Assembly: GCA_027482225.1 (NCBI GenBank) | Contig: JAIXWD010000016.1 | Coordinates: forward strand, 142,050 to 206,049 | DNA: 64,000 nucleotides | Reading direction: 5' to 3' | Origin: Bacteroidota bacterium | GTDB taxonomy: Bacteria; Bacteroidota; Bacteroidia; UKL13-3 | In this document: positions 1,597-23,382 of the stretch, piece by piece | Position numbering within the stretch: position 1 is the first letter of the stretch | Layout: each line of letters starts with the position of its first letter | Program-made: the position numbers and the translations under genes | The notes under the pieces: generated by a model | Told to the model about the DNA's origin: nothing | Databases searched by the model: none | The model's input: the letters and a program-made list of their open reading frames with translations, nothing else

Positions 1597-2328
1597 ATGC
1601 TAACCAAATGCAGGGCCATTGTTATAAAGTGTATTGATTACAGCGAAACAAGTGTAATACTTAAATGCTTTACAAACGTATTTGGTATGCAATCTTATTT
1701 GATAAATGGTGTAAGAAAAAATAAAGGTACCATACGTCAATCACAATTGCAGCCTTTAACCATACTTGAGCTTGAGGCATACCACCAACAAAATAAAAAC
1801 CTACAACGCATTAAAGAATTAAAATGCACTCCTCAACTAAGCAGCCTACATTTTAATATGCATAAAAGTGCCATTGGTATGTTTATGGCCGAAGTGATTT
1901 ACCGCAGCATCAAAGAAGAAAACCAACCAGACGCTAACTTATTTGAATACTTAAACAGCACCATTCAAATTTTAGATATGGAACAAGAGCGAACGGCTAA
2001 CTTTCCACTCTTTTTTCTCATAAATTTATCTCGTTTCTTAGGTTTTTATCCTAAATTAAACAACAGTGGAACCACCACAATGGGATTTAATTTTAGAGAT
2101 GGAGTATTTGAACCTTTCGATGATAAAAATCCATTTCAAATTGATTTAGTGAGTAGCCAACTACTTATTGAATTGATGAATTGTAATTATGATGAACAAA
2201 AAATAATGCAAATTCACGGCCTTCACCGTAAACAATTAATACAAGCTTTAGTTATATACTACAATCAGCATTTAAGCGGATTTAGTAACATGCGTAGCCA
2301 TGAAATTTTGGCAGAGGTATTGGAGTAG
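1597..2328 (+). CDS. recO: DNA repair protein RecO
   Basis: 243 aa of typical RecO length. The N-terminal OB-fold segment (KCRAIVIKCIDYSETSVILKCFT) and overall architecture match the RecO family. Confidence 0.75.
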   Translation: MLTKCRAIVIKCIDYSETSVILKCFTNVFGMQSYLINGVRKNKGTIRQSQLQPLTILELEAYHQQNKNLQRIKELKCTPQLSSLHFNMHKSAIGMFMAEVIYRSIKEENQPDANLFEYLNSTIQILDMEQERTANFPLFFLINLSRFLGFYPKLNNSGTTTMGFNFRDGVFEPFDDKNPFQIDLVSSQLLIELMNCNYDEQKIMQIHGLHRKQLIQALVIYYNQHLSGFSNMRSHEILAEVLE

Positions 2329-2339
2329 TTTTATATTTA

Positions 2340-2933
2340 TCAAAGTTTGTATTTGTGAATACCTGTCCAATCTAAATTATTAATTGTAAAATTGTTATTG
2401 GTAAAAAATGTGTTTGGGTTAATTCCTGTATAAGCATGTATCTTCATTAAAGACTTCGCGCTTACAATTAGTTTACCATCTTTTATTTTAGGCTTGGTAT
2501 TGGTAATATTTTTAATAAGCATGCTATAATACCTATACTCTTCTATTGATTTTTTTCTATCAATTTTAAATATATCATTAGAATTATATAATTGGTTGCT
2601 AAGTATTAATTTAAATGGAACCAATTCTTCATGTCTTATGCTTTTTTTTATAAGCTGTTGTATATCTATGGTAAATAGCGGACTTAAAACTAAATCAAAC
2701 GAATTTATATTTAATGTTTGATTCCATTTTAATGTGTTTATTTTTTTGATTGTATCATCATCAAAAATGAATAAACCATTTATCCCTTCCATTTTCCCAG
2801 TTTTTTCTATTAACCTGGCCAGTTGGTTAAATTGTTCTGCATTATATTTAAACAATTGTATGTGTCTTTCTGAGTTTTCGTCAAAGCCTACATACGTTGT
2901 TAATGTTGGTTGCTCCGCAATTTGTGTTACCAT
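2340..2933 (-). CDS. Hypothetical cytoplasmic protein in an AT-rich gene with no recognisable domain
   Basis: Clean 197-aa ORF with no signal peptide. GC is much lower than neighbouring core genes (roughly 27% by eye). It is convergent with recO. Confidence 0.5.
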   Translation of the reverse strand: MVTQIAEQPTLTTYVGFDENSERHIQLFKYNAEQFNQLARLIEKTGKMEGINGLFIFDDDTIKKINTLKWNQTLNINSFDLVLSPLFTIDIQQLIKKSIRHEELVPFKLILSNQLYNSNDIFKIDRKKSIEEYRYYSMLIKNITNTKPKIKDGKLIVSAKSLMKIHAYTGINPNTFFTNNNFTINNLDWTGIHKYKL

Positions 2934-3045
2934 TAGTCGAAACTATCATGGTATTATGCAGTAAATTGTAGATTTTATTCTGTTAAAAAGATTATTAGTT
3001 CATCATATTGTTCAATTATTTTACCTATTTTATCCATATTATCGA

Positions 3046-3069
3046 TTTTGTAGTATTAAATCTACAAAA
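3046..3069. promoter_or_regulatory. 8-bp perfect inverted repeat (TTTTGTAG-n8-CTACAAAA) in the divergent intergenic region
   Basis: Read directly from the sequence. It lies between the divergently oriented 197-aa gene and the LuxR-type regulator gene. Confidence 0.35.
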
Positions 3070-3107
3070 AGTTCGATTAAATTCTTATTGATGCATCACC
3101 TTTTATA

Positions 3108-3136
3108 TTGATATTTGATTTCCATTAAAATATCAA
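3108..3136. promoter_or_regulatory. 9-bp perfect inverted repeat (TTGATATTT-n11-AAATATCAA), a candidate operator
   Basis: Perfect palindromic half-sites ending 21 bp upstream of the ATG of the LuxR-type regulator gene. Its size is typical of a dimeric HTH regulator site. Confidence 0.4.
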
Positions 3137-3156
3137 ACCATTTATATCATTAAACT

Positions 3157-3864
3157 ATGTTAAGATTTCTTTATTTAGACGAACATGAATTGTGTCGTAT
3201 TGGTTTCAAAACCATTTTATCCGAAATTTCACCTTCATATATTTTAGATGATGCAGCTAACGCTGAGGAATTACTTAGCCTCTTTAAATTGCATTCACAC
3301 AGCATTGTTATAATTGAAATTAACCTCACTAATACCAATGTATACGAATTAGTTCTACAGATTCTAGAATTAAATGACAATTGTAAAATATTAATCTTGT
3401 CTTCTTTAAGTGAAAAACTATATGCCATTAATTACATTAAAATTGGCGTTAAAGGATTTGTAGCCAAATACGAATCGGCTAAAACTATTAAAGAAGCAAT
3501 TAATGCTATGGTTAATAATAAACGCTTTTTTAGTGATACTGTTATTGATATGCTTTTAAATTTATCTTACAATACACCACGCTCTAATTTGGCTGATAAA
3601 CCTCATGTTAATGGAAGTAATAGGGTAATAGTTCAGCCCAAACTTAGTTTAAAAGAAAGTGAAATATTAAGGATGATTTTACAAGGTATGGGTACCAAAG
3701 AAATTGCTAATGCAAATAGCATAAGATTAAATACCGTTAGCACATACAAATCGAGAATTTTTGAAAAATTTAACGTGAAAAATCTTGTTGAATTAATGCA
3801 AATTGTGAAACAAAATAACATGTATGATGCCTCAGGAATTGAACAGCATTATACACAATATTAG
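3157..3864 (+). CDS. Atypical LuxR/NarL-family response regulator with a Glu at the phospho-acceptor position
   Basis: The C-terminal LuxR-type HTH (ESEILRMILQGMGTKEIANANSIRLNTVSTYKSRIFEKF) is clear. The N-terminal receiver-like domain aligns to NarL with conserved Ser/Thr (ILSSLSE) and Lys (GFVAKYE). The acceptor Asp is replaced by Glu (IVIIEINL) and the acidic pair DD is DE. Confidence 0.75.
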   Translation: MLRFLYLDEHELCRIGFKTILSEISPSYILDDAANAEELLSLFKLHSHSIVIIEINLTNTNVYELVLQILELNDNCKILILSSLSEKLYAINYIKIGVKGFVAKYESAKTIKEAINAMVNNKRFFSDTVIDMLLNLSYNTPRSNLADKPHVNGSNRVIVQPKLSLKESEILRMILQGMGTKEIANANSIRLNTVSTYKSRIFEKFNVKNLVELMQIVKQNNMYDASGIEQHYTQY

Positions 3865-4036
3865 TGGTTTTTTATTATTACCTTTTGATGCTATAGTGTA
3901 ATTTTTTTTAAATAAATTATTACATTTTTTTTCAAAAAGTAGAATTAATACTACGTTTTTTCTGCTATTACTCTACAAATGGTAAAAGACTAGCATACGA
4001 ATTTCGCATCGAATTTAAAATCAATCGATACGATCT

Positions 4037-7000
4037 ATGTTTAAAGTTACATCAATTAGGGTAATAACACTACTGTTATTAGTTTTTATTCATTTTTCTG
4101 GTCATTCTCAAAATACTTTAGATGGTGTTGGTTTAACCGCAGCAACACCTTCTACAGTTTCATTTAGTTTACGTAAATTAAGTTCTTCATACTCGGGCCC
4201 AGCAATCCAAGTTAGGCGCAGTTCCGATAACGCCACACAAAATATTGGCTTTGATGTGAATGGTAACCTAGATACTGCTGCTCTTATTTCATGGGTGAGC
4301 AGTGGGTCTGGTTTTGTTTCTATTTGGTATGACCAAAGTGGTAATGGATTAAATGCTACACAAGCTACAGCGGCTAACCAACCAGCAATTGTCATTTCAG
4401 GTAATATTAATAGATATAATGGAAGAGTTGCCATAAGTTTTGATGTTATTAGCCAGCACTTTGCTATTTCTTCATTACCCAACACTTTGGTATGGACTAA
4501 CGGTGTATCATCCAATGCAGTTGTTGCATTTAATAATAATGCAAATTGGGCAAGAGTATACGATTTTGGAAATGGAGCAGGAAATAATAACATTCTACTT
4601 ACTCGCAATAGTACTAGTAATACAATAACATTTAGTTTATATGATGGAGGTAATACAACTGCACAACCTTCCGTAACCAATGCTATATCAACAGGCATCA
4701 ATAATATTTATACTACCATTCAGTCGGCTGCTACTTACCCTGGTTCAGCGGCAACCAATATACGCGTAAATGGATCGGCACAAACAACTGCTCCAGCAAC
4801 ATCTAATATCACCCAGCAGGTTACACGTACAAGTAATTTTATTGGCAGGAGCAATTGGAGTGGTGATGCCTATTTTAATGGCAGTATGCAAGAGTTGTTG
4901 TTTTTTAATGTTGCTTTAACAACAACTCAGGCTCAAACACTTGAAAATAGTCAAAGTAGTTACTATTCAATAAATCAACCAACTATCACAAGTACCGCAA
5001 CAGGTGGTAATTGGACAAGTCCTTCAACTTGGGTTGGAGGTGTTGTGCCAAGCAGCACTAATAACGTGGTAATTGCAACTACAGGAGCAAATGCTGTTAC
5101 ATTAAATACGACTGCTACTGTAAATAACTTGGTAATTAATAGTAACTCTAGATTAAATACCGGAGTAAATTCAATAAGTGTATCAGGAGCATTAACATGT
5201 AATGGGATAATATTAACAGCTAGTAGTCAAGGTGTAATTGGAACATTTCCCGGGTTACCATTAAATCGAATTATTTTAAATACGGGTTCTACTGTAGATT
5301 ACATCGGAACAACTTCACAAAATATTTCACCATTAACTTATGGTAATTTAACAGTAAGCAATACTTCTGCACCTAGCACTTTAACAGGTACAACAAGTGT
5401 AGCAGGAAATTTAACCATAAATACCTCTGCTATTTTAGATAAAAGTACTTTTGGTTTAACAGTTAGTAATACTATTTTTAATAACGGAACTTTTAGAACA
5501 AGTGGTGGACGACTTTCAACAGCTGGTGGTACTGCTTATAATTTAGCTTTTGCTACTGGTGCAAATACCTTAGATACTTTAATCGTGAATAGGTCAGCAC
5601 CCATTACATTAACTTCGCCATTAACTATAAATAACTTATTAACGTTAACCAGTGGTATACTAACGGTACCTGCTGGTAATTTAACCCTTTCAACTAATGC
5701 AATTGCAACAGGTGGTTCTAACACTGCATTTATAAACGGACAAGTAATTGTTAATACAAATACCACAAACAGCAGAAACATACCTTTAGGCAAAAACAAT
5801 TTACTTGGTTCAATATCTCTAATGCCTGAATCATCTGCGGCATCAACCTATACTTTAGAGTATTTTAATGGGGCTGGTGTTACTCCTAATTCAGGAAACT
5901 TAGGGGCAGGTTTAGCAGGTGTTGCTACCAATCAATTTTGGAGTATAACTAAAATTGGTACTAATGCTTCATTTACCTTCAATTACAATAGTTCACCGGG
6001 AGGTACCAATGCTCAACAAATTACATTAGTTAAGCGTACAGGAGGTCAGTGGGTTATACAACCAACCTATAGTAGTAGCATGGCTAACGCTTCTAGTGGG
6101 CAAGCCACATCTGTAAATGCCATTACTGGTAGTTATGGTGATTTTGGTTTAGGATTTATTAATGGAGCAGCTGAAAATGGTTTAGATAGTATAGGTTTAA
6201 CAGCCGCTACACCTGCTGCTGCAGCTTATGCCATGCGCAAATTAAGAAGTGCATACAATGGAGCTGCCTTACGTATTAGAAGAAGCAATGATAATTTAGA
6301 AACCAACATTGGTTTTGATGCAAATGGTCATTTAGATACAACTGCAATTAAAACTTTTACGGGTGTAAATGATGCTTATGTTACCACATGGTACGACCAA
6401 AGTGGTAATAACCGTAATTTTATACAAAACACCCTTGCCAACCAACCTCGAATTGTGTTAGCAGGTGTAATAGATCGTAAAAACGGACAGCCCGCCATTA
6501 GGCATTTGGCAGCAAATACCCATAACCTTAATGTTAATACAGGTGGTTTTGTAACCAATAATAACCCCTGGAGCGTAAGCACTGTATCTGGTTTAGATGG
6601 TGGTGCAAACCAAAGGGTGCTAAGTGGTAACACCAATTGGTTTTTAGGATTTCATGGTGGAGGTGAGAGAAGAGCCTTTTTTGCTAATGTATGGATGCGA
6701 TACAATGGGGTAGATAATTATAACAACGCCACAGCAACTACAAACAACCAAATATACACTGCCGTATCTAATGGAAGCAGCGCAAGTGTATTTAACAATG
6801 GTATGCAATTAGCGGGCACTGTGCCTTCAGGAAATACCTCAATTGGAACATTGTCTACAGGTGGTGGTTTTGGTGAATTCTCAAACTGTGTGGTTCAAGA
6901 AGTAATCATCTTTTCATCAGCTTTATCTTCAGCAAATAGAGCAAGTATAGAGCGAAGCCAAGGACTATATTATGCCATTGGTAATTTTGCCATAAGCACG

Positions 7001-10000
7001 CCTGCAGGTGGTAATTGGAGTAACCCAGCAACTTGGGAAAATGGGGTAGTGCCCACAACATCATCAGATGTGGTGATAAACGCAACAGCAGGTGCTGTGG
7101 TTTTAGATATAAATACCAGTATACGATCAATTAATAACGCACATTTGGCCACCCTAAATTTAGGAGCCGCCAATAACATTACAACGTCTTTAGATGTGAT
7201 TAACCAAGGCACATTAATTACTGCACATCCAAACGGATTAATAGGTAGTAGTGCATCTTTAAATATTGGTGGTACCATTTTAAATACGGCATACAATACC
7301 AGTCGTGTGGTATACAATGGAGCTAATCAATTGGTTAATCCGATATCTTATCGAAATTTAAGTTTATTAAATACGAGCAGTACAAAAACATTGCTTATAG
7401 GTTCGGTAACAACAGTTAGCGACACACTTTTTATAGATAATGGTGTTACGTTTAATAAATCAGCGAATGATTTAAACCTAGCTTGTTTAACTGGCACGGG
7501 TTTATTGTCATCTACAGGTGGTTTACTGCGTTTTAATACTTTTAATATTGCCAATATTGGAACATTACGCATGGCACCTGCTCCCAATAATTCTGTTGCA
7601 TTATTTATTTTATCTAATTTTTTCGCTAATGCATCTTTAACATTGGGTACACCATTGCAAGTAACAACAGATGCTACCTTAGATGCTGGAATTTTAAATA
7701 CCGATTCTGTAAACATATTAAGTCTAATAAATGCAAGTACTATAATGAGTAGGTGGAGCCCCGCTACATTTGTTAATGGCCCTGTTCAATTAATAAGTTC
7801 TTCTATTACCACAAGACAAATTGCAGTTGGTAAAAATGGTACGGGAAATCGAATTTTTATTACACCGCAATCTACTGCTACTACTGTATATAATATTGAG
7901 TATTTTAAAGGAAATGGCAGCGTACCTAACACGTCAAGTTTTGATAGTATTGGTTTGTTTAAAGTATATGATAACCAGTATTGGCGCATCAACAGAACAT
8001 CGGGTGTGGCTAATATTAGGGCTGAATTCGCTTTGAATACAGCTATTAACGGTGGCGTTGCCACAGAAACAGTAACTTTAGCCAATTTTGTGGGTGGTCA
8101 GTGGGTTTCTGTTCCAATTGATAGATTTTTATCGGCTACTGCAGCATTACCTACAGCTATTGCCACCCCTGTGGCAATTAGTAATACGGGGTTATTTGCA
8201 TTTGCCAGCGAAAAAGCAATTGCAACAGCACAAAGTGGCGCATGGAATAACCCCAACACATGGGCTGGTGGATTGGTACCCTCTGTATTTCAATCAACTT
8301 TTATTTCGCCTGGCCATACAGTTGCTGTTTCATCTGCGGCTGAAGCATTAAGTATTACGGTTGCTGCTGGCGCTACATTAGATTTAACTACCAACCAAAT
8401 TACTGGAACCTCGAGTGGTATAATAAATAATGGCACAATATTAACTTCACGCAATGCAGGTTTAATAGGAAGTGGCGCATCTTTACCTGCATGCAATACA
8501 ACTAATACCATTTTAAATGCTGGCAGTAGGGTTATTTATAACGGTGGAGGAGCACAAACAATAAGTGCTCTTACCTACAGGAAATTAACCATAAACAATT
8601 CAGCTTCTACTAAAACATTAGCCGGTAACACGGTTGTTTCCGATTCTTTAACTATTAGTACATTATGTACACTAAATAAAGGGGGATTTAATTTAAATTT
8701 AAACAATGGTATTTTTGGTAGCGGATTTTTACAATCAACAGGTGGTGCTTTTACACTTAGTGGTAATGCATTAAGAAACACCATACAGCTAAATAATTTT
8801 GCCAATACTACAATAAATATTAACTCAACGGCATCTGTTACTGATGTTAGTGCAATTACCCACAGTGGTTTAACTTTAAACATGCAAGCAACTGGTGCAA
8901 CCGACACTGTAAATTTAGTTACACCGCTTTCTGTTGCAAATATTTCGTTGTCTTCAGGATTCATTAAAACAGATTCCATTAATATTTTAACATTAACCGG
9001 AAACGGTACTTATGGTTCAAATGCTTCATACATTAATGGACCTGTGCAGTTTAATACCAGTTCAACCAACAACGTAATACTTGGTTTGGGTAAACAGGGC
9101 ACTTCAAGTAATGTAATAATTACCCCAACTACATCAGTTGCTACCGTTTGGCGAGCAGAGTACTATAGAAGTACACCAACTGCCGCACCTTTAGCTTCTA
9201 ATTTGTTGGGTTTAGGTAATAATCATTATTGGACACTAAGCAGAAACAACACCAACAACGCCATAGTTTCTGTTGGTATTAATCAAGCTGCTGGTGGCAC
9301 ATCTGCCAATACTTTAAAGATGGCTATGTTTACCAACAATACGTGGGGTAATGTACCCATAACAGAAAATACAATATTGGCTAATACCAATATAGCTACA
9401 ATAACATCAGCATCAAGTGTGGTTTTAAATAGCAGTGCTGGTGAAATAGATTATTTCGCATTAGGATTTGGCTCATTGCCTGGTGCACTTCACACTATTG
9501 CAAATGGTAATTGGACTAATCCTGCAATATGGAGCACCAATATTGTTCCATCTACAGGCGATAGCGTAACCATACGCACAGGTTTTACTGTAAATTTAGA
9601 TACAACTATTTTACCAGGTACAGGTCCAAGCACAGTATTAATTCAAACAAATGCTAAACTTAATATCAATTCGGGAGTTATATATTACAACTCTGGAGCT
9701 AATAATAATTTAGTACAAAGCTTAATAACTACAGGTGCTAATCCTTCTGTTGTGTTGGGTTTAAGAAGGCTTTCATCAACATACAATGGTCCTGCAATAC
9801 AGGTAAGAAGGGGTAGTGATAATGTCCTACAAGATGTATTTTTTACATCAGCTGGTAATTTAAATACCAGCACCTTATTGAATTTTGCAGCGGGTTCAAG
9901 TTTGTTTGTGGTAAGGTGGTACGATCAATCTGGTAATGGAAGAGATTTTGTACAAAATACGCCAGGTAACCAACCACGAATTGTAAACAATGGGGTATTA

Positions 10001-16000: not shown

Positions 16001-17662
16001 CCTGCTCAAATAACAGGTAATGTAATTGTGCAGAGGTATATTCCTGCTATAACCCGTAGATCTCGACAGCTTACTTCACCAGTGACTGGTTTTACCTATA
16101 ATCAATTAATTGATGACATTTTCGTTACTGGCCCTGTCGGTGGTATAGGATTCGATATTTCTACTACCAATAATGCATCAATTAATACTTATAACGAACA
16201 AACATCTAACGGAAGGGGCAATAAACCAGTCCAAAATATTAATGACACATTGTTGCCAGGTTTAGGGGCTTTTGTTTTCATTAGGGGAGACCGAACTCTT
16301 CCTTCGCCACAATGGTTTACTCCACCGTTTGTGCCACAAAATGCAGTTACATTAGATTTTGTTGGACCAATTAATCAAGGAGTAGTTTCTCCGCAAATAA
16401 CCTATACACCCACAGGTACACCAACTAATGATGGTTGGAATATGGTAGGAAATCCTTTCCCATCACCAATTGATTGGAGCTTGGTAAATAAAACTGGTTT
16501 AACACCTTTTTACTATACACTAAATCCTTCAACAGGTTCATCTGTGGCTGCTAATGTAGGTATTATAGCATCTGGTCAAGGTATATTTGTACAAGCCTCA
16601 TCAGCTAATCCTACCATTACTTTTAGTGAGTCTTCAAAAGTTTCTGGTACTCCTACAAATTATTTTAAAACCAGTACACCGCCATTATTAATTACCATGA
16701 CAAGGGATGCATTAAATAGTGATGTTGCTATGATGAATTTTAATGCAACATATAGCAGGTCATTTAACAATATGGAAGATGCCTTTAAAATGACAAATGC
16801 TGTTATAAATCTTTCTTTATATGCTGGTACAACGCCTGTTCAAATAAATGGTTTACCAATATTATCTCCATTGGCAACTGATACGTTTGATATAGGTGTA
16901 GATGCTTCTGCTGGTAATTATTCTTTACGATTTAATAATTTAATTGCTATACCAACTGGCTTAAATAGTTATTTAATAGATAGGATGCTTAATACCACTT
17001 TACCAATAGTTGCTGGTGTTGATTATCCGTTTAGTATATCAAGCAGCCCTGCATCGTTTGGTAAAAGATTTGCGATTGTTTTTTCTCCGCTTAATCCTTT
17101 ACCTATTAAGTTACTTAGCTTTAATGCAGCTAAAAGTAATGATAACGTGGTGTTAAATTGGCGCACAGCTTCCGAGTTAAATATGCAAAGTCATATTTTA
17201 GAAAGAAAACTTAGCACTGATTTAACATTTAAAGAAATAGCAGTTATTAAGCCTAATACGGGTGCAGTAGTTGCAACTAACTATGCATACACCGATGCTG
17301 ATATACTAAATAATGCCAGTGGTTTAATATGCTACAGGATAAAGTTGGTAGAAACAAATAAATCATCGTTAAACAGTCATGTTGTTTGTATAGATCCAGT
17401 CATTACAACATCTGCAGCCAACATTTTACTGTTACCAAACCCAGCTCAAGAGGGCGATGTGGTAAAATTAAAAATAGCAGGTTTACAATACGATAGTTAT
17501 GAAATACATGTTGTTGATCTGCTAGGAAGAGTAATACATAAGCAACTAAGTACTACAAACGATATAGATATTGATACCAAACAATTTGATTCTGGTATTT
17601 ATAATATTTTGTTGTTGTCTGATGGCGTTTTGTTGGGAACATCAAAGTTATCAATACAATAA
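4037..17662 (+). CDS. Giant (4541 aa) T9SS-secreted cell-surface protein containing signal peptide, repeated LamG-like jellyroll domains, seven beta-solenoid-like supermodules, one CBM-like insertion, a conserved pre-CTD domain and a type-A T9SS CTD
   Basis: Uninterrupted 13.6 kb ORF. The N-terminal signal peptide is MFKVTSIRVITLLLLVFIHFSGHSQ. The motif (R/K)(K/R)L(S/R)S.Y.GPAI.V.R..D followed by WYDQSGNG....QP.IV recurs at ~4325, 6389, 9917 and 12229. Seven G(G/N)W..P.TW..G.VP...D.V.I motifs occur at ~5004, 7007, 8237, 9506, 12869, 14093 and 15266, each followed by YNG..Q.V...SYR.L, INGP and EYF.G...YW motifs. The C-terminus (LLPNPAQEGDVVKLKIAG...GIYNILLLSDGVLLGTSKLSIQ) is a Por secretion tail. 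Confidence 0.85.
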   Translation: MFKVTSIRVITLLLLVFIHFSGHSQNTLDGVGLTAATPSTVSFSLRKLSSSYSGPAIQVRRSSDNATQNIGFDVNGNLDTAALISWVSSGSGFVSIWYDQSGNGLNATQATAANQPAIVISGNINRYNGRVAISFDVISQHFAISSLPNTLVWTNGVSSNAVVAFNNNANWARVYDFGNGAGNNNILLTRNSTSNTITFSLYDGGNTTAQPSVTNAISTGINNIYTTIQSAATYPGSAATNIRVNGSAQTTAPATSNITQQVTRTSNFIGRSNWSGDAYFNGSMQELLFFNVALTTTQAQTLENSQSSYYSINQPTITSTATGGNWTSPSTWVGGVVPSSTNNVVIATTGANAVTLNTTATVNNLVINSNSRLNTGVNSISVSGALTCNGIILTASSQGVIGTFPGLPLNRIILNTGSTVDYIGTTSQNISPLTYGNLTVSNTSAPSTLTGTTSVAGNLTINTSAILDKSTFGLTVSNTIFNNGTFRTSGGRLSTAGGTAYNLAFATGANTLDTLIVNRSAPITLTSPLTINNLLTLTSGILTVPAGNLTLSTNAIATGGSNTAFINGQVIVNTNTTNSRNIPLGKNNLLGSISLMPESSAASTYTLEYFNGAGVTPNSGNLGAGLAGVATNQFWSITKIGTNASFTFNYNSSPGGTNAQQITLVKRTGGQWVIQPTYSSSMANASSGQATSVNAITGSYGDFGLGFINGAAENGLDSIGLTAATPAAAAYAMRKLRSAYNGAALRIRRSNDNLETNIGFDANGHLDTTAIKTFTGVNDAYVTTWYDQSGNNRNFIQNTLANQPRIVLAGVIDRKNGQPAIRHLAANTHNLNVNTGGFVTNNNPWSVSTVSGLDGGANQRVLSGNTNWFLGFHGGGERRAFFANVWMRYNGVDNYNNATATTNNQIYTAVSNGSSASVFNNGMQLAGTVPSGNTSIGTLSTGGGFGEFSNCVVQEVIIFSSALSSANRASIERSQGLYYAIGNFAISTPAGGNWSNPATWENGVVPTTSSDVVINATAGAVVLDINTSIRSINNAHLATLNLGAANNITTSLDVINQGTLITAHPNGLIGSSASLNIGGTILNTAYNTSRVVYNGANQLVNPISYRNLSLLNTSSTKTLLIGSVTTVSDTLFIDNGVTFNKSANDLNLACLTGTGLLSSTGGLLRFNTFNIANIGTLRMAPAPNNSVALFILSNFFANASLTLGTPLQVTTDATLDAGILNTDSVNILSLINASTIMSRWSPATFVNGPVQLISSSITTRQIAVGKNGTGNRIFITPQSTATTVYNIEYFKGNGSVPNTSSFDSIGLFKVYDNQYWRINRTSGVANIRAEFALNTAINGGVATETVTLANFVGGQWVSVPIDRFLSATAALPTAIATPVAISNTGLFAFASEKAIATAQSGAWNNPNTWAGGLVPSVFQSTFISPGHTVAVSSAAEALSITVAAGATLDLTTNQITGTSSGIINNGTILTSRNAGLIGSGASLPACNTTNTILNAGSRVIYNGGGAQTISALTYRKLTINNSASTKTLAGNTVVSDSLTISTLCTLNKGGFNLNLNNGIFGSGFLQSTGGAFTLSGNALRNTIQLNNFANTTININSTASVTDVSAITHSGLTLNMQATGATDTVNLVTPLSVANISLSSGFIKTDSINILTLTGNGTYGSNASYINGPVQFNTSSTNNVILGLGKQGTSSNVIITPTTSVATVWRAEYYRSTPTAAPLASNLLGLGNNHYWTLSRNNTNNAIVSVGINQAAGGTSANTLKMAMFTNNTWGNVPITENTILANTNIATITSASSVVLNSSAGEIDYFALGFGSLPGALHTIANGNWTNPAIWSTNIVPSTGDSVTIRTGFTVNLDTTILPGTGPSTVLIQTNAKLNINSGVIYYNSGANNNLVQSLITTGANPSVVLGLRRLSSTYNGPAIQVRRGSDNVLQDVFFTSAGNLNTSTLLNFAAGSSLFVVRWYDQSGNGRDFVQNTPGNQPRIVNNGVLEIKNNQPAIRHIAANNNFLFGGSLGLANNFFTVNVVSSNDGATTGRMLSSEANNWMLGFHPGIERTAHFGGGNWQVYNTPTTPANQIYTAVGQNTNNALIYRNGTLLPLLAVPSNRPIDLRTAGAYAQWADGTMQEIVIVPTALNDAQRNSIENSQQSYYLNGVSFITTNGIINNGTIGIADANGLDSAVVGTGPIFNSSSTLNYNGSSQNITAVVASNLVLSGSGTKTMVGDVTVTGNLTVNSGITFNKSNRNLSFSGTTITNNGIMQSTGGTLSLTGSGNINIGFNDATNNVLGNLVLSRGGSHTLTNPLTINTSIALNNGILNTTVTNIINLGGKATTIGGSNTSHINGPLNLITNSLFQRTAPIGKNNMYAPVQIQPQTQTQTTYTVQYFNGAGVTPNSNNRGPGIIGVATNQYWSITRNNSNNAIVGVGFNTSAGGTSAQQLVLANKIINTWTRNSVNNTILGNAISGNFATQSFVSNFGDFTLGYTSALPDNGLDSLGLNNTTTTSLALSLRRLRSAYQGPAIRVNRLRDSAELDIYFQDNGFLDTLTLKNFAAGATGENLVTFSEDFDNSVYIRNGSSAYSIFPNVALSPIGTLTADSMNLGRTNGQWDVFRQINNLVIGRTYTLSMYIRLGTANNFNVVVNNTAAWNTIGGNSYNASNASLNNATWQRISYTFVCPATGRVNVHLGSHGGNQTGVTAQSNGSVYIWGFQLEEGSSANMYIATGPISILNSVNVKTWYDQSGNGRHAVQNNIFLQPTLTLNGVINYMNNKPSMLYDGVDDGFLINNIPTVNNNVNSLFWVQRATKNTYMNLFPNTSPSNGIINSGNRMLLASLGDGSTDVITGLTNNISSFLINGFQTGWSSSTTRNVVHQALQFNPSIVNSLNQPFNFNGNMVIANGHTGWNFGGDMPEIVVTTSTLDSARRVAVELSMGRYYGIVTKESDAWVSTDVGGNWSDINTWVQNSVPPAGAAIAIATKGNNSVVLDTTMTFSGITVRAGATLNLGNSRTTTLSGQLINNGTIITSHPNGLTGVSASVVGTVTHNIGSTIIYNGSSQIVTPTSYRNLRVSGLNTIKTMAMGALTVNDTLTIDSGVTFVQSNSALTLNGNISGTGFLRPNPSNAISIGGGNGGNFGTIHFDTLTNMNIVGTFTLNRSGINPSLTLGNNLQANSSVNLNNGLLNTSNGALLILNNIGTIGSGGSYINGPARLINASTNTNRTIHVGKNGLLGAVTINPGATSSTSWDVQYFGSTPANIGNVSGTISSLSPTQYWSVTKNSSPAASPILAFNFNQAPGGLATSSLALVRYLTNWQLVPVTANSLNGLSASGTLTTSGSVSFPVGVNGNDFAIGYPAPFETKKSGNWRDTSVWVMGAVPPLGSRVFIRASHVVTVDTTIATAGTPSSISILNGGELVFNSINTIGAVASGVTVAGTLTTAHAGGISTSIAGTITFSNGSRLRYNGAAQNVTAIDCEELVLEGSGTKTQTGAILVNDTLLIGNGITFANLTQTLTLYGNYVSNGGGISSSNGNIIVGGSLGGHFGSLNLSGTLANFTFRRYGSSPSLNVVNPFSVANLVIENGIINTDTNNVITLTGSATLGSSSAHINGPIRVITTSVSPLILPIGKGGILGSINFTPSTASTTTWYAEYFNAAPGNTNVDTTISSISASQYWLFSRLSGTANAAVTFNFNKSAGGNSSQAITLARFASSAWTLQNTALNNLNGATVNGSLSLPTQSLFSYFGVGFFNEFFSVASGNWSSPSTWNTNSVPTSSARVTINSGHVVNVLGTINPKSIIIEANAQLNLDTFQVIGQDVTVDLIGTIETARAGGLIGTGASIEQGNILLGSFAKVVYNGSVPQVLSPLSYRKLVIANPAGVTAGNNLILGDSFIVSSGFLNLSTFNLTLTGGFNMESNARGIRASGNNNIQISSSGNLMMDTTVRGVTNRLANLTITGSNLVTLLNFLEAKVEVSVSGANLNSNGFLTLISDSLGTARVAALVSPAQITGNVIVQRYIPAITRRSRQLTSPVTGFTYNQLIDDIFVTGPVGGIGFDISTTNNASINTYNEQTSNGRGNKPVQNINDTLLPGLGAFVFIRGDRTLPSPQWFTPPFVPQNAVTLDFVGPINQGVVSPQITYTPTGTPTNDGWNMVGNPFPSPIDWSLVNKTGLTPFYYTLNPSTGSSVAANVGIIASGQGIFVQASSANPTITFSESSKVSGTPTNYFKTSTPPLLITMTRDALNSDVAMMNFNATYSRSFNNMEDAFKMTNAVINLSLYAGTTPVQINGLPILSPLATDTFDIGVDASAGNYSLRFNNLIAIPTGLNSYLIDRMLNTTLPIVAGVDYPFSISSSPASFGKRFAIVFSPLNPLPIKLLSFNAAKSNDNVVLNWRTASELNMQSHILERKLSTDLTFKEIAVIKPNTGAVVATNYAYTDADILNNASGLICYRIKLVETNKSSLNSHVVCIDPVITTSAANILLLPNPAQEGDVVKLKIAGLQYDSYEIHVVDLLGRVIHKQLSTTNDIDIDTKQFDSGIYNILLLSDGVLLGTSKLSIQ
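4990..16100 (+). repeat. Seven diverged intragenic tandem supermodules of ~1.2 kb (~400 aa) within the giant gene, repeated at protein level
   Basis: The ordered motif series GxW..P.TW / YNG..Q / INGP / EYFxG..YW recurs seven times. There are no long identical DNA repeats, so the duplication is ancient or diversified. Confidence 0.6.
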
Positions 17663-17679
17663 ATTTTAATTCTTAACAC

Positions 17680-18324
17680 ATGAATTTGGCATATCAAATT
17701 ATTATAAAGAGGGGAGTTTTTTTCAGTTTATTATTTTTAACAGCTTTCGATTCCATAGCCCAAAGCGCTTATGGTCAAGCGGGGGATGATGATATCTATA
17801 GTGACTATGGTTATCAGTATTCAAACTATTCTAATTCTGTTTATGAGTTTTCTGAAGAAGAAAAATATAGAAAAAGGCAAGAACGGTTTTATAAAAAAAG
17901 CTACGATGAAGAAGATTTATATAATGGTGGATACAGGGTGAAAAGTCGTTCATCGGAAGTTGATTATTACGCTTTTGGAGGTATTGGCTCAGGTAATATT
18001 GGTAATAGCGTTAAATCATGGTTTAATAGAGACAGTAAAAATGAATCACCTTTACCGAGTAACCAAGAAAAATATAACAACAACGAGGTTGGAACAATTG
18101 ACGGCATTGATAGGTTGGGTGAGGATGGAAAAAGCGGTTTAGCCAACAACAAAGATAATGGTGAGATTTTACAACCAAAAGATGATAAACAAACCGAAAC
18201 CGCACCACCACCGCCAGATGAACCTGATATTCCAATTACAAGTCCTTTATTAAGTATACTCATGATTGTTATAATGATAGGTGTAGCTGTTTTTAACTTA
18301 TCAAACAGATTTAAGATATTATGA
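17680..18324 (+). CDS. Tail-anchored secreted protein that is acidic, Tyr/Asp/Glu/Asn-rich low-complexity, and has a Pro-rich stalk and C-terminal transmembrane helix
   Basis: It has a signal peptide (FFSLLFLTAFDSIAQSA), low-complexity acidic region, PPPPDEPDIP stretch and a C-terminal hydrophobic helix (LLSILMIVIMIGVAVF). It starts 18 bp after the giant gene's stop codon. Confidence 0.55.
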   Translation: MNLAYQIIIKRGVFFSLLFLTAFDSIAQSAYGQAGDDDIYSDYGYQYSNYSNSVYEFSEEEKYRKRQERFYKKSYDEEDLYNGGYRVKSRSSEVDYYAFGGIGSGNIGNSVKSWFNRDSKNESPLPSNQEKYNNNEVGTIDGIDRLGEDGKSGLANNKDNGEILQPKDDKQTETAPPPPDEPDIPITSPLLSILMIVIMIGVAVFNLSNRFKIL

Positions 18325-19457
18325 AAATTAAAACTCTTGTTTTAACTTTAGTTTTGTTTTGTGCATCAACATGCATAGATGTGCAATCACAATCATTATT
18401 TGATAAGAGTACAATAACTGCCCATTCATCTTTAGGTAGAAATTACATCATTAATAATGAATTAGGTAATCCGGGAATGACTTGGACATTGGGCACCTTA
18501 TTTAATTTGGCTAATGTAGTTACTTTAGGATCTAATTACGCTGTGGGGAGTTCTAGCGGTGTAGAAGCTGAGGGAAGTTACAGAAATTCATTTAGAATTT
18601 ATGATGTTGATATTGGGTATATTAAAACATTTAAAAATGCAAAAAGCAACATAATAAATAAGTCATCACTTTCTATTTGTGGTGGTGTTGCACTTTTTCA
18701 TACTAATATTAATTCTTGGAGTGTTAAAAAGGGACTTGCAATATACGATATGTCTTTTTTCTCCTATAAGTTAGGAGCTGGCTACTCTTATAAATTAAAC
18801 GAATTATTAACAGCTAAGGCCAATGTTTCATATTATTTAACATTAACTAATTTATTAGATGGTTTAAACACTGGTAGTAAAGATGATTTACTGGTTTTTT
18901 CGTTAGGCCTTGGTTATAATATAAATGCTTTTGATGCGAGAAAGGAAAGATTACTCCTTTACAATGCGATTCAAGAAAACATAACTATAAACAACAAATT
19001 GTTAATGGAGATTGCAAAAATTGATGGTCAAAGTAAACAAGGAATTAAGAATAATGAATCTCAAAATGGATTAGTAAATGTTAAATCGGATTCAATCTTT
19101 AAAGACAAAGCAGTTAACAATTCAGATTCTTTAAAAATACCTTTAAGTTACACACTTGAAAATGCACCAGAAAAAAATAACGATTCAGTTAAGTATACTA
19201 TAAAGTACCCCCGACATAAATACAATGTAGTATTCGGAGGCTTTTTTAGCATAAAAAATGCACTTTCTGAAGTTGCAAAGATGAAGAAATCTGGTATTAA
19301 TGCTGAGCCCTATTGGAAAGGAGATAAAAGTAAACTGGTGTTTTTAGTTGTTTTCTCTAGTAATGATTATCAGGAAGCCCAAGAGAAGGTTAGATCTTTT
19401 AGGAAAAAGGGATACACTGATGTATGGTTATATACATCTAATTCAACCAAAAAATAA
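18321..19457 (+). CDS. Outer-membrane beta-barrel protein fused to a C-terminal SPOR (septal peptidoglycan-binding) domain
   Basis: It has a signal peptide. The N-terminal ~200 aa show alternating amphipathic beta-strand character with Y/G-rich turns, as in OMP beta-barrels. The C-terminal ~75 aa (YNVVFGGFFSIKNALSEVAKMKKSGINAEPYWKGDKSKLVFLVVFSSNDYQEAQEKVRSFRKKGYTDVWLY) fit the SPOR pattern. Its start overlaps the upstream gene by 4 bp (ATGA). Confidence 0.55.
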   Translation: MKIKTLVLTLVLFCASTCIDVQSQSLFDKSTITAHSSLGRNYIINNELGNPGMTWTLGTLFNLANVVTLGSNYAVGSSSGVEAEGSYRNSFRIYDVDIGYIKTFKNAKSNIINKSSLSICGGVALFHTNINSWSVKKGLAIYDMSFFSYKLGAGYSYKLNELLTAKANVSYYLTLTNLLDGLNTGSKDDLLVFSLGLGYNINAFDARKERLLLYNAIQENITINNKLLMEIAKIDGQSKQGIKNNESQNGLVNVKSDSIFKDKAVNNSDSLKIPLSYTLENAPEKNNDSVKYTIKYPRHKYNVVFGGFFSIKNALSEVAKMKKSGINAEPYWKGDKSKLVFLVVFSSNDYQEAQEKVRSFRKKGYTDVWLYTSNSTKK

Positions 19458-19463
19458 TTTTAA

Positions 19464-20177
19464 ATGAATATTCAAAATCAATCAGAATTTGATTCGAGGT
19501 ATGATTTATTCTTACATGCTGCTCACGAATTAAACACTCCTTTAACGTCTTTAGTAATGGCAACCTTTTTATTAAAGAACGATAAGACGAATTTTGAAAG
19601 TAGGCAAAAATTTTTAAATAGCGTAAATGTTATTGAACGTTCTTGTGATAGACTTCAACGAACCATAAATAATGTAATTCTTTATCATCGATTACAACAA
19701 CCTAATTTCCCAGTATACGATCAAAAGTTAGTAGAGGTGCTTTTTCTTATAAGAGAATGCGCAGAAAAAATATCAAATCAACAAGGTAGAACTGGTGATA
19801 TTGTTTTTAATTTTTCTTTAGATTCTGATGTTGGGTTGTTAATTCCACGTGAATATTTTATGGTAATGATTAATGAGTTAATTCATAATGCATTTAGCTT
19901 TTCTGAAGTTGGATCAAAAGTTATAATCAATTATAGACTATCAAATAAATTTGGTGTTTTTTCTATTACCGATTTTGGCATTGGTATGGGAAAAGAAGAG
20001 GTATCGGCAATAGGTGCTTATACTCAATTTAACAGAGGAATATTGGAACAACAAGGCTTAGGGTTAGGGTTAACTTTAGTGAAACAATTAACGGATAAAC
20101 ATTTTGGTGAGTTAAAGATTAACTCTAGTAAAGGAAAAGGTACAACCGTTCAGTTATGTATTCCTTTGTATTGTTAA
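19464..20177 (+). CDS. Minimal cytoplasmic histidine kinase with HisKA H-box and HATPase_c, lacking sensor and transmembrane domains
   Basis: The H-box (HELNTPLTSL) begins at residue ~21. The N box is NELIHNAF, G1 is DFGIGMG and G2 is GLGLGLTLV. It has no hydrophobic segments. An in-frame stop immediately upstream precludes a longer N-terminus. Confidence 0.75.
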   Translation: MNIQNQSEFDSRYDLFLHAAHELNTPLTSLVMATFLLKNDKTNFESRQKFLNSVNVIERSCDRLQRTINNVILYHRLQQPNFPVYDQKLVEVLFLIRECAEKISNQQGRTGDIVFNFSLDSDVGLLIPREYFMVMINELIHNAFSFSEVGSKVIINYRLSNKFGVFSITDFGIGMGKEEVSAIGAYTQFNRGILEQQGLGLGLTLVKQLTDKHFGELKINSSKGKGTTVQLCIPLYC

Positions 20178-20210
20178 ATATTGATTACATTAATTGTATA
20201 AGTTTTCAAT

Positions 20211-20237
20211 TTTATTTCTATTTCTATTTCTATTTAA
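20211..20237. repeat. Hexanucleotide microsatellite (ATTTCT)x3-4
   Basis: Read directly from the intergenic sequence ttttatttctatttctatttctattt. Confidence 0.5.
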
Positions 20238-20397
20238 AAGAAGGTTATTCATTGAATCATCAATAAATGGTGAGAGGAAATTGGTTATATCCCACCATTT
20301 ACAAATCAAAAATTTTTTTGTGCAGAAAGTTTGTTTAGGTAAAATGTATTTAGCAGTTAATTATTATACAAAAATTAATGCTTGTGTAACATATTTT

Positions 20398-20766
20398 TTA
20401 TCTGCTTAATCCATATTTATCTATAAACGGAAGATTGAATGAATTGCTTTTGGCGCGGTAAATAACCTCACAATTGTTTATTTTATTGCAAATTGCATCA
20501 ACAGGTCCCCATGCATAATTACAGGTGCCTATTTTATCTCCAGATTCATTATATACCACAGTACCTCCATCGTAAACTAATTGACTAAGGCAATATACTT
20601 TTTGGTTGTTGAGAGTACATTCTGAAATTTCTCCGTTAGGGTTTTGCTTATATAGCATATTTACTACCTGATGTTGTAAAGGTTCATCTTTTTTACAACC
20701 GCTGTTGATTAGTATGAATAAGCTTGAATATAGTATAAGGTACTTCATCTTAGTTAATAGATTCAT
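20398..20766 (-). CDS. Small hypothetical lipoprotein
   Basis: It has a signal peptide with a lipobox-like LINSGC. It is 122 aa and Cys-containing. Confidence 0.45.
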   Translation of the reverse strand: MNLLTKMKYLILYSSLFILINSGCKKDEPLQHQVVNMLYKQNPNGEISECTLNNQKVYCLSQLVYDGGTVVYNESGDKIGTCNYAWGPVDAICNKINNCEVIYRAKSNSFNLPFIDKYGLSR

Positions 20767-20910
20767 TTAAGTTTTAAAAATCTGTTTTTCAATACGAATT
20801 TAGGAATAAATTCTAAGTTGATAAATATCAATTTACTTCATACTTTTTACTGCTTAACTTTCAAAAAAAACAACAATAAAACAGAAAAGTGTTTTACACA
20901 CACCAAACAA

Positions 20911-20953
20911 AAAAGTCATCCCTATGCCGCATAATTGGTATGAGATGACTTTT
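20911..20953 (-). terminator. Hairpin (AAAAGTCATC ... GATGACTTTT) 3' of the transketolase C-terminal-subunit gene
   Basis: 10-bp inverted repeat flanked by A/T runs, about 20 nt downstream of the minus-strand gene end at 20974. Confidence 0.45.
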
Positions 20954-20973
20954 AATAATATTATTAATGCTAT

Positions 20974-21927: not shown

Positions 21928-21978
21928 GTATCAAATAATATTCTTTTTTTATTGTGTTGAATACTTTTTTGTATTCTT

Positions 21979-23364: not shown

Positions 23365-23382
23365 GGAATAAATAATTGTACT

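Follow-up and report, generated by a model that had tools for sequence, protein, structure and literature searches.

A rare gene cassette joining a giant type IX secretion cargo to a predicted barrel-SPOR protein and a minimal histidine kinase in Bacteroidota

Dedicated partner proteins are so far known for type B cargos of the T9SS (the type IX secretion system) alone, where they belong to the PorP/SprF family. Can a type A cargo have dedicated partners as well? This question is raised by a locus in a 64,000-nucleotide (nt) stretch of a Bacteroidota bacterium genome (assembly GCA_027482225.1, contig JAIXWD010000016.1, positions 142,050 to 206,049), which we refer to as the window. In this locus, the gene of a giant secreted protein is followed by three accessory genes, denoted o6, o7, and o8, and preceded by a regulator gene, o4. 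The original prediction, made from the sequence alone, proposed that these five genes could form a self-contained module for the surface display of one giant adhesin. We found that the combination of the giant gene with its three accessory genes is real and very rare, and it is apparently undescribed. With our confidence evenly divided, we propose that it is a very rare conserved cassette of a freshwater Bacteroidota (Chitinophagales-like) lineage, in which a type A T9SS cargo is encoded together with three partners that would tether or position it.

A four-gene unit kept together across loci

All of the genes named in the original prediction were found in the list of open reading frames (ORFs) at their coordinates and on their strands. 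The giant gene (4037-17662, + strand; 4541 amino acids (aa)) is followed on the same strand by o6 (17680-18324; 214 aa), o7 (18321-19457; 378 aa), and o8 (19464-20177; 237 aa). The untranslated junctions are 17 nt between the cargo gene and o6 and 6 nt between o7 and o8, and o6 and o7 share a 4-nt ATGA overlap. The overlap is as first described, but the earlier spacings of 18 and 7 were coordinate differences rather than gaps. The regulator gene o4 (3157-3864, + strand; 235 aa) ends 172 nt before the cargo gene. A consensus scan found no terminator-like hairpin on the + strand from 14153 to 21453, which is weak evidence in Bacteroidota. A scan for sigma-70-type promoters, a model ill-suited to Bacteroidota, gave fewer matches than shuffled sequences, and a search of the intergenic regions for TAnnTTTG-like -7 elements had no clear outcome. 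No structured RNA leader or riboswitch matched Rfam across the whole window. The GC content was 0.27-0.30 in o3 (the gene divergent from o4), o4, o7, and o8, 0.34 in o6, 0.37 in the cargo gene, and 0.345 in the window, confirming that the regulator gene is AT-rich and showing that the accessory genes are AT-rich likewise.

We then compared the locus with about ten metagenomic contigs, all from a single clade, that encode o7 homologues. The order of giant gene, ~215-aa gene, ~378-aa gene, and kinase gene was found in L004 (o7 93% identical), L002 (56%), the P0005 contig (48%), and L003 (44%). L002 has identical 17/-4/6-nt junctions, and the P0005 contig has other downstream genes (bPH_4, YceI, and DUF5777). 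The contig of L005 (81%) begins at the o6 gene and continues with the ~378-aa and kinase genes. In the more distant L012 and L013 (o7 ~23% identical), a 772-aa Por_Secre_tail cargo is followed by a 391-aa barrel-SPOR protein, a 205-aa protein, and a 253-aa kinase. The two middle genes are therefore swapped, and the 205-aa protein carries the motif EEDLYNGLYR and the motif LPPDPDIPI with a transmembrane (TM) helix. L014 and L015 (~21%) encode a 1677-aa cargo, a 174-aa protein ending in PPPPPDPPDLPL, a TM helix, and a basic tail, a barrel-SPOR protein, and a 359-aa kinase with an N-terminal receiver. In L011 (26-28%), an o6-like C-terminus (PPPPDEPDVPI and a TM helix) is encoded directly upstream of the barrel gene, and in L016 (~20%) this place is taken by a divergent kinase homologue.

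The kinase gene adjoined the barrel-SPOR gene in 10 of the 10 contexts with enough DNA to be informative, and an o6-type protein did so in nine of the ten. A T9SS cargo was found upstream in every context with upstream DNA. In no informative context were the accessory genes scattered, and the giant gene and its three accessory genes behaved as a single inherited unit down to ~21% o7 identity, even where the gene order and the flanks had changed.

The o7 family was found to be extremely rare. Only 5 close homologues were identified among 5.8 billion proteins, a profile search returned 35 clusters among 1.84 billion representatives, and the genome and metagenome scans gave 2 loci each, all of them in metagenome-assembled genomes or metagenomes. 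These counts exclude the possibility, raised by the original prediction against itself, that the 378-aa protein is a generic OmpA paralogue present at many loci. Within the window, an insensitive tblastn search, which missed o4 with CheY, NarL, and PhoB queries, found no paralogues of o6, o7, or o8 and no other receiver genes.

The linkage could also arise with no functional unit behind it, if the order were kept only through genome relatedness and the proteins had unrelated jobs. All of the loci do belong to a single clade, PGM, YchF, and YceI/DUF5777 neighbours recur in distant loci, and the association with the regulator is confined to the closest lineages. However, the flanks change, with transketolase and VWA-domain genes in the window, YceI/DUF5777 in the P0005 contig, and PGM in L012 and L014. 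The set also stays together where the middle genes of L012 are swapped, its genes overlap or lie 6-17 nt apart, and the linkage persists to 21% identity in o7 and 32% in the kinase. We therefore consider relatedness on its own a very unlikely explanation.

The cargo and its predicted partners

The C-terminal domain (CTD) of the giant protein is of type A. It scored 28.2 bits with TIGR04183 (cutoff 23; last 153 aa) and 28.4 bits with PF18962 (cutoff 27), and at E<=1 the C-terminus matched type A models only and no type B model. An N-terminal Sec signal peptide, MFKVTSIRVITLLLLVFIHFSGHS/Q (the slash marks the cleavage site), was read from the sequence. The signal peptide, together with a type A sorting domain over both curated thresholds, bears out the assignment of the giant as a T9SS cargo. 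Type A cargos leave the cell through the T9SS and become fixed to its surface (PMC9143113).

The Pfam matches of the giant are three ArabFuran-catal domains (AbfB-type jelly-roll), G8, and Por_Secre_tail, and its composition is rich in Asn, Thr, Ser, and Gly. It consists of repeated LamG/AbfB-like jelly-roll modules and ~400-aa G8/beta-helix-like modules, followed by a C-terminal module. Motif mapping placed about four jelly-roll modules of the type RKLxSxYxGPA...WYDQSGN, interleaved with at least seven ~400-aa modules of the type GGNWxxPxTW. The modules were placed by motif, as self-BLAST returned the self-match alone for internal repeats. The conserved C-terminal module (aa 3965-4528; 15929-17620, + strand) includes the type A CTD (aa 4467-4528; 17435-17620). 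It is rare, with six matches in our search, and a PDB sequence search with this module gave no match. The 772-aa cargo of L012 is 38% identical to it over 568 aa (E 1e-114). The module was also found, at 32% identity, in a 596-aa T9SS cargo of L019 (1084-3681), encoded after an Ice_binding-domain protein. Because this relative has no accessory genes after it, the module is not a sufficient predictor of the cassette.

The cargo comparisons bear on a different explanation, in which o6, o7, and the kinase make up an autonomous module of the envelope or of septal peptidoglycan, with a signalling or structural role, that is merely co-transcribed with a cargo that is no client of it. The tightest linkage, in 10 of 10 contexts, is indeed that of the barrel-SPOR and kinase genes, and the cargos are very different (772, 1677, and 4541 aa), with the last ~190 aa alone common to all. 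The C-terminal cargo module can occur without accessory genes, and the gene next to the adjoining pair of kinase homologue and barrel genes in L016 is a convergent, unrelated radical-SAM gene. On the other hand, a same-strand Por_Secre_tail cargo lies immediately upstream wherever there is upstream DNA, and the 17-nt junction to the cargo stop is conserved. The window-type and L012-type cargos have a 565-aa module in common at 38% identity, and no signalling way is visible from periplasmic o6 and o7 to the soluble kinase. We consider the autonomous module unlikely, and we prefer the reading in which the three proteins serve the cargo.

The first of these proteins, o6, starts with a signal peptide (n-region K10R11, h-region VFFSLLFLTAF, and cleavage site AQS/A) that is kept in its orthologues. 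The mature part is acidic, with an isoelectric point of 4.5, is rich in Asp, Glu, Tyr, Gly, and Ser, and is probably disordered. The orthologue alignment contains two invariant motifs. The first is the block RQxRFYKKSxxEEDLYNGGY, and the second is PPPPDEPDIPI, which stands directly before the C-terminal TM helix and is followed after the helix by a short basic tail. The Pro-rich motif, helix, and basic tail were also found in L011, L012, L014, and L015 without other sequence similarity. The protein had been described as a tail-anchored acidic protein. The acidic composition and the C-terminal helix were confirmed, but tail-anchoring does not apply because a Sec signal peptide is present besides the helix. 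This suggested that o6 is a bitopic, periplasm-facing protein held by its C-terminal helix. No Pfam, NCBIfam, or PDB relative of o6 was found. The tripartite layout of PPPPDEPDIPI, helix, and basic tail is similar to that of PEP-CTERM/exosortase-type sorting signals; the last 47 aa matched no NCBIfam sorting-domain model at E<=1.

The second protein, o7, matched Pfam models below threshold only (OMP_b-brl, E 0.002; SPOR, E 0.096, 13.5 bits against a cutoff of 21). Its domains were therefore assigned from structure prediction and from those family members that pass the Pfam thresholds. AlphaFold2 (AF2), run on the family alignment, predicted an 8-stranded barrel at aa 31-200 (18411-18920), with block pLDDT mostly ~65-87 (range 52-87), followed by a 43-residue helix (aa 206-248) and a disordered linker of ~50 residues. 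The C-terminus (~aa 300-372; 19218-19436) was predicted as a beta-alpha-beta-beta-alpha-beta domain of the SPOR fold, with pLDDT 90 when modelled alone. In Foldseek, the barrel matched the TM domains of OmpA, OmpX, Ail, and NspA with E down to ~1e-10, and for the OmpA TM domain E was 1e-10 and the TM-score 0.79 on the target. The top PDB matches of the C-terminal domain were CwlC (1x60, probability 0.98), RlpA (6i09), DedD (6ztg), and FtsN (1uta), with E 0.04-0.4; a profile of the domain searched against PDB sequences reached CwlC at E=1 only. Distant family members exceeded the Pfam SPOR threshold with 32, 25.7, and 24 bits, and one of them also matched OMP_b-brl and a coiled-coil. The AF2 folds, the Foldseek matches, and the family SPOR scores uphold the predicted fusion of an outer-membrane beta-barrel with a SPOR domain. 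According to these models, o7 has the architecture of OmpA with a SPOR domain replacing OmpA_C.

We also weighed whether o7 is a divergent shuttle or anchor of the PorP/SprF, PorV, or PorG type for the giant cargo. Its gene adjoins a giant T9SS cargo gene, and PorP/SprF-like partner genes adjoin those of type B cargos, as sprF adjoins sprB (PMC12618676, PMC9143113). PorG is also an 8-stranded outer-membrane protein with a functional periplasmic tail, and tail cysteines are functional in PorG and SprF (PMC12635249). A comparison of the 378-aa protein with PorP/SprF, PorV, and OmpA/SPOR models had been suggested as a check. In Pfam and NCBIfam, o7 matched no PorP/SprF (TIGR03519/PF11751), PorV, PorG, or OmpA_C (PF00691) model at E<=0.1, had no NCBIfam match, and matched SPOR below threshold; we rejected membership in the PorP/SprF, PorV, PorG, and OmpA_C families. 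The cargo CTD is of type A, the o7 barrel is of the OmpA/OmpX/Ail class, and the cysteines of o7 are confined to positions 14 and 18, in the signal peptide, and 120, so its periplasmic tail has none; the family alignment has no conserved cysteine. Membership of o7 in known outer-membrane families of the T9SS is thus largely refuted, and the shuttle explanation is highly improbable.

Within the reading of o7 as a partner of another type, the closest parallels are the SprB/SprF pairs and other pairs of type B cargos with PorP/SprF-like partners in Flavobacterium johnsoniae and Porphyromonas gingivalis, in which a very large T9SS surface protein is likewise encoded beside an outer-membrane barrel and the likely common role is to retain or position the cargo at the cell surface (PMC12635249, PMC12618676, PMC9143113). 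In contrast to these pairs, the cassette has a type A CTD, an 8-stranded OmpA/OmpX-type barrel without a PorP/SprF match, and in addition a putatively inner-membrane-anchored protein and a kinase. The cysteine tail of SprF bonds to GldK, whereas o7 ends in a predicted SPOR domain. Full-length OmpA and its TM domain were the best Foldseek matches (E 7e-11 to 1e-10), and the overall architecture is common to both. Unlike OmpA, an abundant housekeeping porin, o7 is rare and locus-specific, and it has a SPOR fold instead of OmpA_C and a helix and linker between its domains.

The ligands of SPOR domains are denuded glycan strands, found enriched at septa (PMC6895207). FtsN, DamX, DedD, RlpA, and CwlC are SPOR-domain proteins (PMC6895207), and the C-terminal domain of o7 is predicted to share their fold. 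The SPOR proteins known so far belong to the division machinery as bitopic proteins of the inner membrane, lipoproteins, or amidases, whereas the predicted SPOR domain of o7 is placed on an outer-membrane barrel in a T9SS cargo operon. The T9SS itself uses a peptidoglycan-binding module in PorE, a multi-domain lipoprotein with an OmpA_C-like peptidoglycan anchor (PMC7192894, PMC12773672), and a small barrel in PorG. The predicted structure of o7 joins both in one polypeptide. PorE and PorG are core machinery, whereas o7 is cargo-linked, matches neither sequence model, and lacks the tail cysteines of PorG. No Pfam or NCBIfam models exist for o6 or o7, and full-text literature searches on SPOR with type IX secretion turned up no account of a cassette like this one. 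T9SS cargos with dedicated partners are known, and what is new here are the other building parts and the regulatory arm.

The kinase, the regulator and the candidate operators

The third accessory protein, o8, matched HisKA (44.8 bits) and HATPase_c (59 bits) and no other Pfam domain. Its DHp domain begins near residue 14 of 237, and there is no TM or hydrophobic segment and no sensor, so the description as a sensorless minimal histidine kinase holds. H21, N142, D170-G174 (DFGIGM), and G198-G202 (GLGLGL) are invariant across five orthologues. This points to a soluble DHp and CA kinase with intact catalytic motifs, and because every catalytic motif is kept, o8 probably phosphorylates something. 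It is not PorY, as it reached 50.9 bits with NF052314, which has a cutoff of 350. The homologue in L016 (1-678) is 21% identical (pairwise E 6e-10) and no longer has the N-box Asn or the G2 box, and may be a pseudokinase. The 359-aa kinase of L014 (11056-12135) and L015 (1272-2351) has an orthologous kinase core (32% identity to o8 in L014, E 2e-32) with a pseudo-receiver fused at its N-terminus. In this receiver, Gly stands at the Asp column, KT replaces DD, and the conserved Lys is gone. The best NCBIfam match of the fused pseudo-receiver is the receiver of PorX, at 40 bits only.

The regulator o4 matched GerE (PF00196, 57 bits) and Response_reg (PF00072, 47.4 bits). In an alignment with NarL, CheY, and PhoB, Glu54 (codon 3316-3318) was found at the column of the phospho-acceptor Asp (NarL-D59/CheY-D57) in 8 of 8 family members, and Asp was found there in the three reference proteins and in the two nearest outgroups. 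D8, S82, and K104 are retained. The LuxR-type regulator therefore has a receiver without the phospho-acceptor, as predicted, but the novelty attached to this feature did not stand, since aspartate-less receivers (ALRs) of the Glu type are known and common; Glu is the commonest substitution, in 26% of ALRs, and ChxR is an example (PMC4395418). Like ChxR and other ALR or pseudo-receiver regulators (PMC4395418; PMC12632262), o4 has Glu at the phospho-site, and it differs from them in its LuxR/GerE output, its small family of ~8 sequences, beyond which identity falls to 28%, and its place beside a T9SS cargo operon. PorX and PorY, an orphan pair that controls the T9SS (PMC11320123), resemble o4 and o8 as two-component-type proteins for a T9SS-related output. 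In contrast to PorY, o8 has no TM segment and is far below the model cutoff, and o4 is of the LuxR type while PorX consists of REC and PglZ domains.

Divergent from o4 lies o3 (2340-2933, - strand), which encodes a 197-aa cytoplasmic protein without a known family; no Pfam, NCBIfam, PADLOC, or PDB match was found for it. Homologues of 196-198 aa lie head-to-head with the regulator gene in L006-L009, and o3 is 62% identical where flanking genes are 94-99% identical. The order recO, o3, o4, and giant gene is conserved in L006-L008, and the o3/o4 pair is conserved in a lineage with 53% regulator identity (L009/L010); the 44% o7 homologue and L010 share one sample of origin (SRR30451266). No homologue of o4 or o3 was found within the 10-kb flanks of L012 and L014. 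A divergent first ORF in L012, considered as a second regulator, encodes a signal-peptide/propeller-like protein that is no o4 homologue. Of the proposed five-gene order, the four genes at 4037-20177 are thus deeply conserved, and the regulator is confined to the clade of the window. It is a clade-specific addition outside the deeply conserved module.

Two palindromes on both sides of o4 are candidate operators for a LuxR dimer. The first, TGTAGTATTAAATCTACA (3049-3066), lies ~91 nt upstream of the o4 start, and the second, AGTAGAATTAATACTACG (3938-3955), lies 82 nt (motif end to ATG) before the giant gene. In the 64 kb, the motif GTAG-N8-CTAC has exactly two occurrences against 0.36 expected, one at 3050-3065 and the other at 3939-3954; we found it by inspecting these regions, which makes the count statistics post hoc, and its conservation across lineages is independent support. 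A degenerate copy, TGTAGATTTTATTCTGT (2967-2983), lies by the o3 start with two mismatches to TGTAGNNTTNANNCTAC. In L006 and L007, a copy with one mismatch was found at the place equivalent to 3938-3955. Near the 53%-identical regulator, TGTAG-N8-CTACA was found at position 1041 in L009 and at positions 23 and 917 in L010; in these loci it precedes the regulator by ~55 nt (motif end to ATG), and L010 has an exact copy 71 nt downstream of the regulator stop. At the sites equivalent to 2967-2983, the sequence reads GTAGATTTTAATCTAT in L006 and L007 and, by eye in the intergenic region, TTGTAGAATAAAATCTTAAT in L009. Because the palindrome TGTAG-N8-CTACA stands on both sides of o4 and is conserved in the clade, it suggests that o4 controls the operon, presumably by binding these sites.

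The original prediction coupled the cargo to a phosphorylation-independent circuit. This found no backing in a kinase that keeps every catalytic motif. A related explanation is that o8 and the Glu54 regulator form a non-canonical pair that acts by binding, sequestration, or an alternative modification rather than by Asp phosphorylation, with kinase and pseudo-receiver fused in distant relatives. The clade of the window has a receiver-less kinase and a separate Glu-type regulator, L014 and L015 have a pseudo-receiver fused to an orthologous kinase, and no Asp-bearing receiver was seen in any locus. However, the receivers of o4 and L014 have no specific similarity (best E 0.46), the regulator is missing from the flanks of L012 and L014, and the intact ATP-binding and His motifs of o8 argue for an Asp-receiver partner elsewhere in the genome. 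We give the non-canonical pair little credence, and any coupling of surface display to such a circuit is conjecture.

Proposed arrangement, allele mosaic and neighbouring genes

In the arrangement that we propose, the giant protein would leave the cell by way of Sec and the T9SS and be presented on the surface, as its signal peptide and CTD lead one to expect from T9SS biology. The barrel of o7 would sit in the outer membrane, its helix and linker would cross the periplasm, and its predicted SPOR domain would bind peptidoglycan. Held in the inner membrane through its C-terminal helix, o6 would extend an acidic disordered arm with its two invariant motifs into the periplasm. Together, o6 and o7 could form a tether from the inner membrane through the cell wall to the outer membrane, or a positioning device for the cargo. 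They would be a functional analogue, made from other parts, of the PorP/SprF partners of type B cargos. The co-encoded soluble kinase would be the cytoplasmic regulatory arm, and in the clade of the window a Glu-type LuxR regulator, added upstream, probably binds TGTAG-N8-CTACA before o4/o3 and before the giant operon.

Several points weigh against this proposal. Type A CTD cargos are normally served by the general PorV/PorU/PorZ machinery, without the need for a partner of their own (PMC12618676, PMC9143113). The cargo of L014 aligns to the giant over the last ~190 aa only, a generic region, and the L019 cargo that carries the C-terminal module is followed by an opposite-strand gene, its accessory genes missing. 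The SPOR statistics of o7 in the window are weak (E 0.096 in Pfam, 0.04 in Foldseek, and 1 for the PDB profile). The cytoplasmic tail of o6 comprises 5-8 residues and is not conserved. The kinase is the weakest part of the model, as no route is visible from the envelope to a soluble kinase, and the L016 homologue has degenerate boxes and no Pfam match. The downstream genes PGM/YchF or YceI/DUF5777 recur across loci, and shared descent could account, as synteny, for some of the linkage. We infer every step of the mechanism that goes past the domain identities and the linkage.

A comparison of the window with the genome of L002/L006, which is from nearly the same organism, revealed a mosaic of alleles. 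The flanking transketolase subunits and VWA protein are 97-99% identical and recO is 94% identical. Synonymous divergence (dS) is 0.30-0.39 in the transketolase, VWA, and PorZ genes, with a ratio of nonsynonymous to synonymous divergence (dN/dS) of 0.02-0.05; in recO, dS is 0.67 and dN/dS 0.05. DNA identity dips sharply to 53-67%, within flanks of 92-95%, in discrete blocks of the regions 2250-5500 and 17630-19100. The dip blocks comprise o3, aa ~100-500 of the giant, and o6 to the o7 barrel, and dS is raised three- to six-fold in them. Whole o7 has 58% protein identity (dS 0.98, dN/dS 0.32), with dS 1.33 and dN 0.37 in the barrel. Protein identity is 71% in o6 (dS 0.77, dN/dS 0.24), 62% in o3 (dS 0.97, dN/dS 0.25), and 80% in o4 (dS 0.35, dN/dS 0.33), and the N-terminal 1300 aa of the giant are 70% identical to L006 (dS 0.81, reaching 1.9 over aa 101-500; dN/dS 0.29). 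About 90% identity is maintained in the SPOR domain, kinase, and cargo C-terminus. For the SPOR domain dS is 0.50 and dN/dS 0.11, for the kinase (90% protein identity) dS is 0.45 and dN/dS 0.11, and for the giant C-terminus (92.5% identity to L002) dS is 0.22 and dN/dS 0.17.

Because dS and dN are both raised in the dips, these are old divergent alleles swapped by recombination and not just the product of fast local evolution. Surface structures under frequency-dependent selection typically have such a pattern, and such exchange is expected for structures under phage or grazer pressure. The mosaic fits surface exposure of the barrel and the N-terminal cargo modules, and it fits conserved periplasmic or cytoplasmic interfaces of the SPOR domain, the kinase, and the cargo C-terminus. 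From this mosaic hypervariability, selection by phages or grazers in freshwater Bacteroidota probably targets the locus.

If the proposed arrangement is true, the cassette would be a second, differently built way to anchor or position giant surface proteins, for a type A cargo, and would connect the T9SS for the first time with SPOR-type recognition of septal peptidoglycan. It would also be a natural case of a sensorless, catalytically intact kinase paired with pseudo-receivers. These implications apply to a tiny family known from metagenomes only, with no cultured host. A more far-reaching version, which we consider decidedly unlikely, is a self-contained trans-envelope device. In it, a T9SS fibre would be tied via o7 and o6 to septal (denuded) peptidoglycan and so sited at division sites or new poles. 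It would be controlled by a kinase/pseudo-receiver pair without Asp phosphorylation, the pseudo-receiver being fused to the kinase in distant relatives and split off here as a Glu-type LuxR regulator that binds TGTAG-N8-CTACA.

Other T9SS-related genes were observed in the window. A partial PorZ gene (7-1560, + strand; 390 bits with NF052228, which has a cutoff of 260) is located 2.5 kb upstream of the cargo gene and is followed by recO (1597-2328), and the order PorZ, recO, o3, o4, and giant gene was also found in L006. The proximity of PorZ probably reflects neighbourhood rather than function, because the distant loci are without PorZ. Three more type A CTD cargos were found at 26025-28088 (+ strand), 41679-44033 (- strand), and 48967-50724 (- strand), namely an endonuclease-I-like protein, an M6 metalloprotease, and a 585-aa protein without a known family. 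The domain before the CTD of the endonuclease-like cargo is 26% identical to that of the giant. With PorZ and three further type A cargos in the window, the organism therefore offers a working T9SS context. In L012 (908-4518), two paralogous secreted proteins of 577 and 613 aa with a common N-terminal domain are encoded directly upstream of the cargo. The 577-aa protein has a Pfam FGE-sulfatase match, and none is on record for the 613-aa protein. T9SS and gliding lipoproteins of the GldJ/GldK/PorK type belong to the same superfamily as FGE-sulfatase.

We also considered an anti-phage defence island, and rejected it, as PADLOC gave a trivial HTH match and a weak match (E 0.003) to the HATPase_c region of the kinase. 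Downstream of the kinase, o9 (20398-20766, - strand) is a lipoprotein-like ORF of 122 aa that matches DUF6970 weakly. It is variably present, being found in the 81% lineage (L005) and missing from the 93% lineage (L004), in which the kinase gene lies 155 bp from the transketolase gene. It is thus outside the cassette. The transketolase gene of the window (20974-24228, - strand) is split into an N-terminal subunit (~23383-24228) and a C-terminal subunit (20974-21927), with a gene for a 461-aa secreted VWA-domain protein (21979-23364) between the halves, and this arrangement is kept in L002 and L004. The AT-rich spacer just past the kinase stop contains 5.5 copies of TTTCTA (20204-20235), the sole tandem array found.

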